Below, one piece after another: positions 3,078-3,960 of a DNA stretch of 6,746 nucleotides. The stretch spans positions 1-6,746 of IMG/VR virus record IMGVR_UViG_2663763286_000009; one strand, 5' to 3'. The notes under the pieces are model-generated. The model was not told the origin of the DNA and did not search any database. It saw only the letters and a program-made list of their open reading frames with translations. The first letter of the stretch is position 1. Every line of letters starts with the position of its first letter. The position numbers were made by a program, and so were the translations under genes. Origin of the DNA: a virus. Lineage: Duplodnaviria; Heunggongvirae; Uroviricota; Caudoviricetes.

Positions 3078-3108
3078 AAATATTAGCCCTACTAATTTTA
3101 AAGATCAA
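3078..3108 (-). promoter_or_regulatory. Sigma70-type promoter for the ydaS-ydaT-ydaU-ydaV operon, with an overlapping operator-like element
   Basis: Read on the minus strand: -35 TTGATC (3108-3103), 17-nt spacer, -10 TAATAT (3085-3080). A 23-bp imperfect palindrome (3078-3100: AAATATTAG cccta CTAATTTTA on the plus strand) covers the spacer and -10. Confidence 0.45.
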
Positions 3109-3120
3109 TAGTCAGACTAT
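3108..3120. promoter_or_regulatory. Perfect 13-bp palindrome ATAGTCaGACTAT between the divergent promoters; candidate operator
   Basis: 6-bp arms ATAGTC/GACTAT around a single central base. Abuts the -35 of the ydaS promoter and lies in the spacer of the putative racR promoter. Confidence 0.4.
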
Positions 3121-3123
3121 CTT

Positions 3124-3132
3124 TGATAATAT
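3124..3132 (+). promoter_or_regulatory. Putative extended -10 element (TGaTAATAT) of the repressor gene promoter
   Basis: TG at 3124-3125 followed by TAATAT at 3127-3132 (alternative GATAAT 3125-3130). Poor -35, as expected for a PRM-like autoregulated promoter. Short leader without a Shine-Dalgarno. Confidence 0.3.
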
Positions 3133-3156
3133 TGGTAAAACAAATAAACTCTATGT

Positions 3157-3618
3157 ATGAAAAAAACACGCGAAGTGATTGCAACTCCAGAAGCGAGCAA
3201 GAATTTAAAAGCCGCATGGAATGCAAGAAAAAAAGAGCTGAAGCTGACTCAAGAGTTGGCGGCTGAGTTGTTGGGATTCGAATCTCAAGGCACCGTTAGC
3301 CAGTATCTGAACGGCAAGATACCGGTAAATACCGACGCTGCGCTAAAATTTGCGGCTCTGTTAAAGGTAAAACCAGAGGACATTCGAGAAGACCTTAAAG
3401 ACTTAATGAATTATGTAAGATCATCAGATACTTATGATGATAGCTTTTCAGGCAAAGGATGGAGGCTGGTCAATGAAGAACAGGCAGAGTTACTTAACCT
3501 CTTCGAGATTCTACCTGCGTCAGAAAAAGCCAAACTCCTTAACCAGCTACGTGGACTAAACAAGCTCTACGAGGAAGCCTTCGAGAACATGCTGGCACTA
3601 AAGAAACGTAACCAGTAG
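3157..3618 (+). CDS. racR: Prophage repressor-like XRE-family HTH protein without an S24 peptidase domain, RacR-like
   Basis: 153-aa ORF; N-terminal HTH (LTQELAAELLGFESQGTVSQYL); C-terminus helical with no Ser/Lys peptidase motif. In-frame stop immediately upstream of ATG 3157 and no clear Shine-Dalgarno. Divergent from the ydaS operon, followed by an intrinsic terminator. Symbol by synteny. Confidence 0.75.
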   Translation: MKKTREVIATPEASKNLKAAWNARKKELKLTQELAAELLGFESQGTVSQYLNGKIPVNTDAALKFAALLKVKPEDIREDLKDLMNYVRSSDTYDDSFSGKGWRLVNEEQAELLNLFEILPASEKAKLLNQLRGLNKLYEEAFENMLALKKRNQ

Positions 3619-3644
3619 CCACCGCTCACTACCCCACCCACAAC

Positions 3645-3677
3645 AAAAAAAAACCGACGTCTTAGTCGGTTTTTTTT
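3645..3677. terminator. Bidirectional rho-independent terminator downstream of the repressor gene
   Basis: A9 run (3645-3653), stem CCGAC (3654-3658) / GTCGG (3665-3669) with loop GTCTTA, then T8 run (3670-3677). The A and T runs can extend the stem. Confidence 0.6.
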
Positions 3678-3774
3678 GTGCCATAACTTCTGCAAATCAG
3701 CTGTATAACTAATATTTTTCCCTTGAAAAAACATTTACATAGTTACAAAATCAAAAATATAATACGCCTTGCTG

Positions 3775-3805
3775 TTGACTTAAAATATACGTGTCACTAA
3801 TATTT
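3775..3805 (+). promoter_or_regulatory. Strong sigma70-type promoter (PL-like) with overlapping operator-like element
   Basis: -35 TTGACT (3775-3780), 17-nt spacer, -10 TAATAT (3798-3803). A 23-bp imperfect palindrome AAATATACG tgtca CTAATATTT (3783-3805) covers the spacer and -10. Architecture and 9-mer CTAATATTT are shared with the ydaS promoter. Confidence 0.5.
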
Positions 3806-3960
3806 CTATCGAGAACAGCACGGCGCTGTAGGTTTTAGTTCCGCCACCCGGCGTTAAGGGAAAAGATTTGAGGTGATGTATGACGGGAGTGAAAATAGCG
3901 CCTATCAAACTTACCATAGACGCTACAGAAGTAACGGAACACTTTAGTGCGATACATGGG

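Follow-up and report, generated by a model that had tools for sequence, protein, structure and literature searches.

The 6,746-nucleotide stretch analysed here (the window; positions 1 to 6,746 of IMG/VR virus record IMGVR_UViG_2663763286_000009) is the early region of a Rac-like lambdoid prophage of Escherichia coli, and it contains two similar promoter modules on opposite strands. These modules are very probably the right operator and promoter (OR/PR) and the left operator and promoter (OL/PL) of the prophage immunity cassette, and the nine-base word that they share, CTAATATTT, is very probably an arm of a 19-bp operator read by a repressor of 153 amino acids. A first-pass annotation had proposed an OR/OL-type pair recognised by one repressor. 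The operator pair is supported by layout, positional conservation, a population footprint and homology of the repressor to CI, but the suggested RacR-like identity of the repressor did not hold. The cassette is an uncharacterised example of the textbook lambda-type switch and not a new kind of element.

The layout corresponds to that of lambda: a cro-like gene read from PR, a repressor-maintenance promoter (PRM) directed into the repressor gene, a terminator and then PL facing kil and recE. The hallmarks of a lambdoid immunity region can be recognised in the sequence, with divergent repressor and cro genes, several putative OR sites over PR and PRM, and the same kind of sites at PL beyond the repressor gene. 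The ydaS-like gene (2774-3049, minus strand) is the first gene of the rightward (PR) operon and encodes a Cro-like helix-turn-helix (HTH) protein of the YdaS family (WP_001053423.1). It is separated by 107 bp from the divergent repressor gene (3157-3618, plus strand; WP_000753628.1), whose product has an HTH_3 domain. An intrinsic terminator lies 3' of the repressor gene (3646-3677, plus strand), with a stem CCGAC/GTCGG between an A-run and a T-run in a perfect 13-nt inverted repeat with a loop of 6 nt. A hairpin and T-run are present at this position in all relatives examined.

All promoter and operator elements described earlier at the two early promoters were recovered at their positions. 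The minus-strand module (3108->3071) consists of TTGATC (3103-3108), TT, the imperfect palindrome TAAAATTAG-TAGGG-CTAATATTT (3100->3078), GC and TCGAG (3075->3071). The plus-strand module consists of TTGACT (3775-3780), TA, AAATATACG-TGTCA-CTAATATTT (3783-3805), CTA and TCGAG (3809-3813). PR and PL are alike in having a 17-nt spacer and the -10 hexamer TAATAT. PR (3080-3108, minus strand) has its -35 TTGATC at 3103-3108, its -10 at 3080-3085 and a predicted start near 3073; with a score of 8/12 it falls under the threshold of the promoter scan and was read directly from the sequence, and its -35 and -10 are kept across diverged cassettes. PL (3775-3803, plus strand) combines TTGACT with TAATAT, scored 9/12 in the promoter scan, has a predicted start near 3810, faces kilR, ydaE, racC and recE, and is kept in all relatives examined. 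A PRM-like promoter (3123-3150, plus strand) with TTGATA, a spacer of 16 nt and TAAACT was found by the same scan.

Upstream of PL there is also a near-consensus promoter-like sequence, TTTACA-18-TATAAT (11/12; 3734-3763), 41 bp from PL and with its -10 overlapping the left arm of the OL2 site described below. It is allele-specific, with TATCAT, CATAAT or TATTAT in other alleles, and was rejected as the true PL because its hexamers differ among alleles while TTGACT-17-TAATAT is kept. The TCGAG included in the original description of the modules is likewise polymorphic at both promoters and absent in relatives: at PL most alleles have TCAAG, and TCGAA and TCGAT variants occur at PR. It was dropped as a conserved element, and comparison of the alleles indicates that its presence where transcription is predicted to start is a coincidence limited to certain alleles.

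Exact copies of CTAATATTT occur three times in the 6,746 bases, at 3078-3086 (minus strand), 3709-3717 (plus strand) and 3797-3805 (plus strand). The copy at 3709-3717 had been noticed before and is exact; the other two include the -10 TAATAT of the divergent early promoters. The number of copies is too weak to stand alone as evidence, because a word of at least 9 nt was common to both AT-rich intergenic regions in 24% of Markov shuffles and one 9-mer was present at least three times in about 4%. These frequencies favour a coincidence of two AT-rich sigma-70 promoters, which would share only a common -10 TAATAT with AT-rich flanks and have no operator. The allele-specific nature of TCGAG points in the same direction, as does the K-12 promoter PydaST, which has the same -10 TAATAT together with an unrelated repressor and is active in vitro (PMC11879457). 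Such a coincidence is nevertheless highly improbable given the arrangement around the shared word. The partner arm lies in the promoter spacer, where there is no promoter constraint, yet all 44 cassette haplotypes keep it unchanged and differ freely in the 5 bp that separate the arms. Moreover, a perfect 13+5+13 palindrome is found at this position in one relative (locus L016), and the same motif recurs in the window on a third promoter with a different -10.

The shared word appears from these comparisons to be one arm of a pseudo-palindromic operator with the 19-bp core ATATTAG-N5-CTAATAT. This core was taken from the perfect palindrome of an unrelated locus (L016/L018) and then used as a probe against the window, where it has exactly three matches with at most three mismatches (OR1, OR3 and OL1), all of them overlapping promoters. 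Shuffles of the whole window gave an expectation of 0.17 matches against the three seen. When the intergenic DNA alone was shuffled with dinucleotides preserved, three matches were obtained in 1 of 5000 shuffles, and two matches with at most two mismatches in none of 5000. The palindromic pattern is thus far beyond chance in the shuffle tests, with p ~2e-4 locally, which also speaks against a coincidence of AT-rich promoters.

Instead of one site per promoter, as first described, the window contains a candidate lambda-like array of three OR and two OL sites together with a lone half-site; OR2, OR3 and OL2 had been overlooked. OR1 (3080-3098, centre 3089) is ATATTAG-CCCTA-CTAATTT, the core of the 23-bp palindrome at 3078-3100; it has one mismatch to the consensus and lies over the PR spacer and -10. 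OR3 (3129-3147, centre 3138) is ATATTGG-TAAAA-CAAATAA, with three mismatches, over the PRM spacer and -10. OL1 (3785-3803, centre 3794), ATATACG-TGTCA-CTAATAT, is the core of the 23-bp element at 3783-3805, has two mismatches and covers the PL spacer and -10. The candidate OR2 (3105-3123, centre 3114) is TCAATAG-TCAGA-CTATCTT, with ATAG-N5-CTAT as a palindrome inside it; the site overlaps the PR -35 and lies directly against the PRM -35. It has the same 7+5+7 geometry and is 25 bp from OR1 and 24 bp from OR3, and counterparts are TCAATAG-tctag-CTATTTG in the Stx2a phage Lyz12581Vzw and TCAATAG-ttaca-CGATTGG in three further loci (L012-L014). The candidate OL2 (3760-3778, centre 3769) is TAATACG-CCTTG-CTGTTGA, again of 7+5+7 geometry, 25 bp from OL1 and with its right half overlapping the PL -35; it is in the same register as ATATACG-aaaaa-CAATTGA in L024. 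An OL2 placed 36 bp upstream of OL1, as in L012-L018, is not present in the window; here the site at a distance of 25 bp fits. The OR centres are at -68, -43 and -19 from the predicted PRM start. The lambda operators are centred at -66, -42 and -19 relative to their PRM start.

The third copy of the 9-mer (3709-3717, plus strand) is a single half-site of the consensus that stands alone, 88 bp upstream of the copy in OL1. A full operator around it was rejected, as the expected left partner TCAGCTG agrees with the consensus at only 2 of 7 positions. The 9-mer and the 88-bp spacing are kept in L022 and L023, where the repressor is 92% identical and the upstream flank is different, but no positional conservation was found in the variant cassette of 65% identity. 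It may be an auxiliary site or a passenger.

The motif was followed in relatives with repressors 43-100% identical to that of the window, taken from species-representative genomes, IMG/VR and public assemblies. Sites of the ATATTAG-N5-CTAATAT type are found at the same positions, and at both early promoters a palindrome, in which 7-bp arms flank a 5-bp centre, lies over the promoter spacer and the -10. In L016 and L018 the palindrome is a perfect 13+5+13, CCAATAATATTAG-TTATG-CTAATATTATTGG. Measured from the repressor ATG, the OR site centres occupy fixed positions, about -67 and about -19, in each of the 17 loci examined: OR1 is centred at -66 to -69 in 17 of 17, and the OR3 centre falls at -19 or -20 for L012-L015, L019 and the window group and at -19/-22 for L020. 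The 65%-identity variant has a perfect palindrome, TTATGAA-CTGTA-TTCATAA, that aligns in register with OR3. An OL1-type site is found on the PL -10 in loci with closer repressors (48-100% identical).

Variation within the cassette type gives a second line of evidence. Among 54 loci with a repressor at least 95% identical, 44 distinct cassette haplotypes were distinguished. Their nucleotide diversity is 0.026 for the operator arms and 0.162 for the five N5 spacers; other intergenic DNA has 0.032, and the repressor gene has 0.013 at its four-fold degenerate sites. The inner G/C positions of OR1 and OL1 (3086, 3092, 3791 and 3797) are invariant. The difference between arms and spacer is seen at OR1 (0.013 vs 0.26, with natural spacer alleles such as CCCTA, CCCCA and CTCCG), OL1 (0.022 vs 0.23) and OL2 (0.065 vs 0.196, with spacer alleles including CCTTG, CCATA, TCACA and CTTTA). 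At OR3 the sole variation is one rare variant, in the left arm. The contrast is greatest with the sites exactly in register and fades within a shift of 3-4 bp, and none of 20000 random site placements reached the observed value. The sister cassette of 65% identity displays the same pattern, with a variable spacer (CTGTA, TTGTG, CCACA, CTACA) in the palindrome at the OR3 position. Conserved arms around a free centre, located within promoter spacers that RNA polymerase does not read, are the signature of a dimeric DNA-binding protein and not of a promoter alone.

Several points weigh against this interpretation. OR2 and OL2 agree with the consensus at only 8-9 of 14 positions; they were recognised after the first three sites and therefore carry less weight, and the footprint statistic that includes them is partly post hoc. 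OL1 shows little conservation in its left half, where ATACG, ATCCG and ATCTG all occur. The DNA is AT-rich and the -10 lies within the arm, so part of the arm conservation is promoter constraint, and the 44 haplotypes are related by descent and are not independent samples. A match between recognition helix and operator is also incomplete: the half-site has an inner A in L020 and the QS..SH group and an inner G in the QG and QA groups, but L016-L018 (QAS.SH) break this rule, and a simple code across groups is not claimed.

The resemblance of the two modules could in principle have arisen by recent duplication, a promoter segment having been copied without independently maintained functional sites. 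Two cases favour this, namely K-12 Rac, in which the OL and OR regions are linked by a 35-nt inverted repeat with 83% identity, and L013, whose OR and OL sites have 18 identical bp in common. In the window, however, only 20 of 31 positions agree between the modules, identity being limited to the -35, the 9-mer arm and an outer AAATAT, while the central spacers and the inner parts of the left arms are different and change separately from each other. A common functional grammar, and not copied DNA, would be expected to give this pattern, and a duplication is very unlikely.

The repressor consists of a lambda-CI-type N-terminal HTH domain joined to a DicA-like C-terminal tail. Pfam assigns it only HTH_3 and HTH_31 and finds no S24 peptidase domain. 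Relatives of the family that do have PF00717 align over the N-terminal domain only, and the repressor is therefore not a full member of the CI/LexA family. When a profile of the repressor family was compared with the PDB, the matches were to lambda CI N-terminal domain entries only (E = 6.5e-10 to 2e-8, residues 8-81); the single sequence matched the lambda CI N-terminal domain with E = 2.6e-4. The alignment to lambda CI keeps Q33, E34, Q44 and N52, an acidic residue at D38 and the basic N-terminal arm, and the N-terminal domain is 50% identical to that of the LexA-family CI of Stx2a phages. The last 42 amino acids (residues 111-152) are 38% identical to residues 91-132 of DicA (E = 8e-6), but the HTH domain gave no BLASTP alignment to DicA. 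The earlier label of a RacR-like protein was abandoned: BLASTP against K-12 RacR gave no meaningful alignment (E = 26), and the RacR-type operator (T/A)TAGGC-N3-GCCTA(T/A) is present in K-12 and not in the window. A literature search found no paper on this repressor or its operators.

The Cro-like product of the ydaS-like gene has Pfam matches to YdaS_toxin and HTH_3, belongs to phrog_35 and matches the Cro proteins 8c7k and 8co2 in the PDB. Its N-terminal HTH half diverges with the cassette, while its C-terminal 40 amino acids are identical in the 65%-identity variant. This divergence together with the cassette would fit a different assignment, in which the sites are operators and the Cro-like YdaS, or another cassette or host factor, is their main or only ligand, the 153-residue HTH protein binding elsewhere. 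In prophage CP-933P both YdaS and the repressor PaaR2 footprint the same region (PMC8630535), and the assignment of the window repressor as ligand comes from sequence comparison. On the other hand, the same motif and spacing are found in the Stx2a phage whose CI is 50% identical in the N-terminal domain, where the gene on the cro side encodes a 79-residue 'transcriptional repressor'. The half-site starts with TAT.A, like the lambda CI half-site TATCAC, and Q44, which is a base-contacting residue in lambda CI, is conserved. Repressor and Cro also have common operators in every characterised lambdoid switch. A ligand other than the repressor is for these reasons unlikely. YdaT, the CII-like protein, was rejected as ligand because OR and OL contain no site like TTGATT-N6-AATCAA, the sole good match being the known box at the start of ydaT.

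With the repressor as ligand, the array suggests how the switch would operate. The arm includes TAATAT, so that operator arm and -10 are the same bases, and a bound repressor would therefore block RNA polymerase. Repressor dimers at OR1 and OR2 would shut PR and with it ydaS, ydaT and the replication genes, and dimers at OL1 and OL2 would shut PL on the kilR and recET side. Repressor bound at OR2, centred at -43 of PRM and abutting its -35, would probably activate its own leaderless transcript through the conserved acidic E-x3-E patch of helix 2, and at high concentration OR3 would be filled, giving negative autoregulation. The Cro-like YdaS would probably compete for the same sites with a different order of preference. 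A leaderless repressor mRNA, with its 5' end at or beside the first base of the start codon at 3157, is predicted since there is no Shine-Dalgarno sequence ahead of this codon and only 6 nt lie between the PRM -10 and the ATG, both in the window type and in the 65% variant. The cI mRNA of lambda is leaderless. With about 0.7 kb between them, OR and OL could be brought together by looping. We infer binding, order of occupancy, activation from OR2, leaderless translation and OR-OL looping from this arrangement.

Compared with K-12 Rac, the window carries a different, heteroimmune cassette (2797-3834) comprising the ydaS-like cro gene, OR, the repressor gene, the terminator and OL/PL. BLASTN alignment to K-12 Rac gives 93% identity over 2370-2796, 94% over 3835-3867 and 99.5% over 4239-6624, but no similarity over 2797-3834. 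The repeated modules therefore sit within the swapped immunity cassette. The exchanged region runs exactly from ydaS to just past PL. Its left edge coincides with the junction of ydaS and ydaT, its right edge is about 25 nt beyond the start predicted for PL, and the flanks are 87-99.5% identical to K-12 Rac on both sides. The cassette (2750-3867) is found with 97-99.8% identity in other E. coli genomes and with 97.2% in phage Rac-SA53. Among 5426 complete E. coli genomes searched, 183 records have it at 95% identity or more and 75 further records have the sister cassette of 65% identity; carriers include O157:H7 strains and strain 042.

Likeness to lambda extends to the divergent PR and PRM with three pseudo-palindromic OR sites 24-25 bp apart (OR2 being a candidate in the window), the operators on the PL -10 and -35, the CI-homologous N-terminal domain with its basic arm and conserved acidic helix-2 patch, the predicted leaderless repressor mRNA, and the half-site TAT.A compared with TATCAC. 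The differences are in the operator sequence, in conservation over 19-23 bp compared with the 17-bp sites of lambda, in two clear OL sites plus a distant half-site instead of OL1-3, and in an OR-OL distance of about 0.7 kb instead of 2.4 kb. In addition, a helical DicA-related tail of about 70 amino acids replaces the S24 autocleavage and dimerisation C-terminal domain. In the Stx2a phage Lyz12581Vzw the three OR sites are ATATTAG-cttac-CTGATTT, TCAATAG-tctag-CTATTTG and ATATTTG-tgttg-CTAATAA, spaced by 24 and 23 bp.

CP-933P of E. coli O157:H7 also has a Rac-type cassette in which a small HTH repressor takes the place of CI; PaaR2 was compared by its published description only. PaaR2 is reported to be a functional equivalent of CI, with YdaS as Cro and YdaT as CII, and its PRM transcript has been shown experimentally to be leaderless (PMC8630535). 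PL has exactly the same -35 and -10 as PR, the sites in OL are similar to those in OR, and PaaR2 and YdaS each repress PR, PRM and PL in experiments (PMC8630535). CP-933P differs in its operator consensus, GTTTAGTAA, which occurs in four 18-bp inverted repeats (PMC8630535), and in a paaA2-parE2 toxin-antitoxin pair in the PaaR2 operon that is absent in the window.

K-12 Rac has the same prophage backbone, the same -10 TAATAT and three OR operators, but RacR is unrelated in sequence to the window repressor and its operator differs. RacR has two HTH domains joined by a linker and recognises (T/A)TAGGC-N3-GCCTA(T/A), and its three inverted-repeat operators O1-O3 lie between the repressor gene and ydaS, with O1 on the ydaS promoter and O3 at the repressor start (PMC9638921). 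In the K-12 Rac locus (L003), TAGGC-N3-GCCTA repeats 25 bp apart were also seen at 3631-3682 and 4270-4341, at OR and upstream of ydaG, and the 35-nt inverted repeat joins OR to this ydaG-upstream (OL/PL) region. The K-12 OR sites are described in the paper in NAR from 2022, the text of which never mentions ydaG (PMC9638921).

The DicA/DicC pair of prophage Qin likewise consists of a small HTH repressor divergent from a cro-like gene, and the C-terminal 42 amino acids of the window repressor resemble DicA. The HTH domains, however, do not align in BLASTP, and the YdaS-like protein has no similarity to DicC. Phage Rac-SA53 annotates the repressor and ydaS-like gene pair as dicA/dicC; this annotation was rejected because likeness to DicA is found in the C-terminal tail only, and the tail probably explains the loose label.

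The N5 spacers (3087-3091, 3112-3116, 3767-3771 and 3792-3796) are the most polymorphic positions in the cassette. On a neighbour-joining tree they have 2.0 inferred changes per site, compared with 0.3-0.4 for other non-coding DNA and 0.08 for the repressor gene, i.e. about 5 times and about 25 times more, among 44 cassettes that are otherwise 97-99% identical. Positions 3088, 3792 and 3793 have each changed 6-7 times independently, while the OR3 spacer (3136-3140) does not vary. The polymorphism may reflect relaxed constraint, hypermutability or selection. It is conceivable, though rather doubtful, that the spacers are under diversifying or recurrent selection beyond mere lack of constraint. 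If so, lineages would use bases that are not read directly by the protein to tune the affinities of repressor and Cro, and would thereby adjust the set-point of the switch or escape superinfection immunity. The central bases of the 434 operator are a known precedent for an effect of bases that are not directly read.

The product of kilR is an inhibitor of FtsZ, and ydaS and ydaT have been discussed as toxic. The cassette would control these genes and recET, and knowledge of its operators would help to predict which Rac-like prophages are co-immune, how genes that affect the host are silenced and which point mutations cause derepression. The cassette also appears to be a natural hybrid in which a lambda-CI DNA-binding domain and lambda operator geometry are combined with a DicA-like oligomerisation tail, without RecA-dependent cleavage. 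It is suited to asking how far lambda cooperativity and PRM activation need the C-terminal domain. The textbook picture is left unchanged by the cassette.

The leader downstream of PL (3815-3867, plus strand) is conserved and ends at the mosaic breakpoint 3867/3868. It is almost invariant in the 44 haplotypes (diversity 0.007), with the sequence AGCACGGCGCTGTAGGTTTTAGTTCCGCCACCCGGCGTTAAGGG. The 65%-identity cassette has nearly the same leader, and K-12 has the 3' part of it upstream of ydaG. The leader may be an antitermination or processing signal. Searches against Rfam gave only chance-level matches (E 0.18-0.8) in the PL leader and operator region, overlapping 3633-3863. More distant relatives have a different conserved leader with GTTCTGAC...GGAAAGAC, which resembles a boxB-type hairpin.

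On the other side of the cassette, the minus strand carries the CII-like ydaT (2368-2790), a ydaU-like replication gene (1502-2290) and the dnaC-like ydaV (755-1495). The start codon of ydaT (2788-2790) is overlapped by CTGATTTTCATGAATCAA (reverse complement TTGATTCATGAAAATCAG; 2780-2797), a candidate CII-like (PRE-type) control site. Its counterparts are the YdaT-box ATGATTCATGAAAATCAA of K-12 Rac, which has been footprinted with DNase, and TTGATT-N6-AATCAA of CP-933P.

Beyond the breakpoint, the ydaG/ydaF/sieB region is replaced in a second mosaic substitution relative to K-12 Rac (3868-4238). This segment contains an open reading frame (ORF) of 116 amino acids (3880-4230, plus strand) directly downstream of PL, with a good Shine-Dalgarno sequence and no Pfam match. 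Antisense to it is a 76-residue ORF (3961-4191, minus strand) of the CxxC...CxxC zinc-ribbon type, with DNA matches in Klebsiella phages and HK639. The plus strand then continues with kilR, ydaE, racC and recE, 99.5% identical to K-12 from kilR through recE. Just upstream of kilR there are two sub-threshold Rfam matches, to DicF at 4397-4451 (37.6 bits; gathering score 48) and to STnc100 at 4440-4639 (37.7 bits; gathering score 47), and K-12 has an annotated small RNA, kilS, immediately upstream of kilR. Positions 9-119, which lie beyond ydaV at the left edge of the window, encode the C-terminal end of an IS3-family transposase-like ORF.

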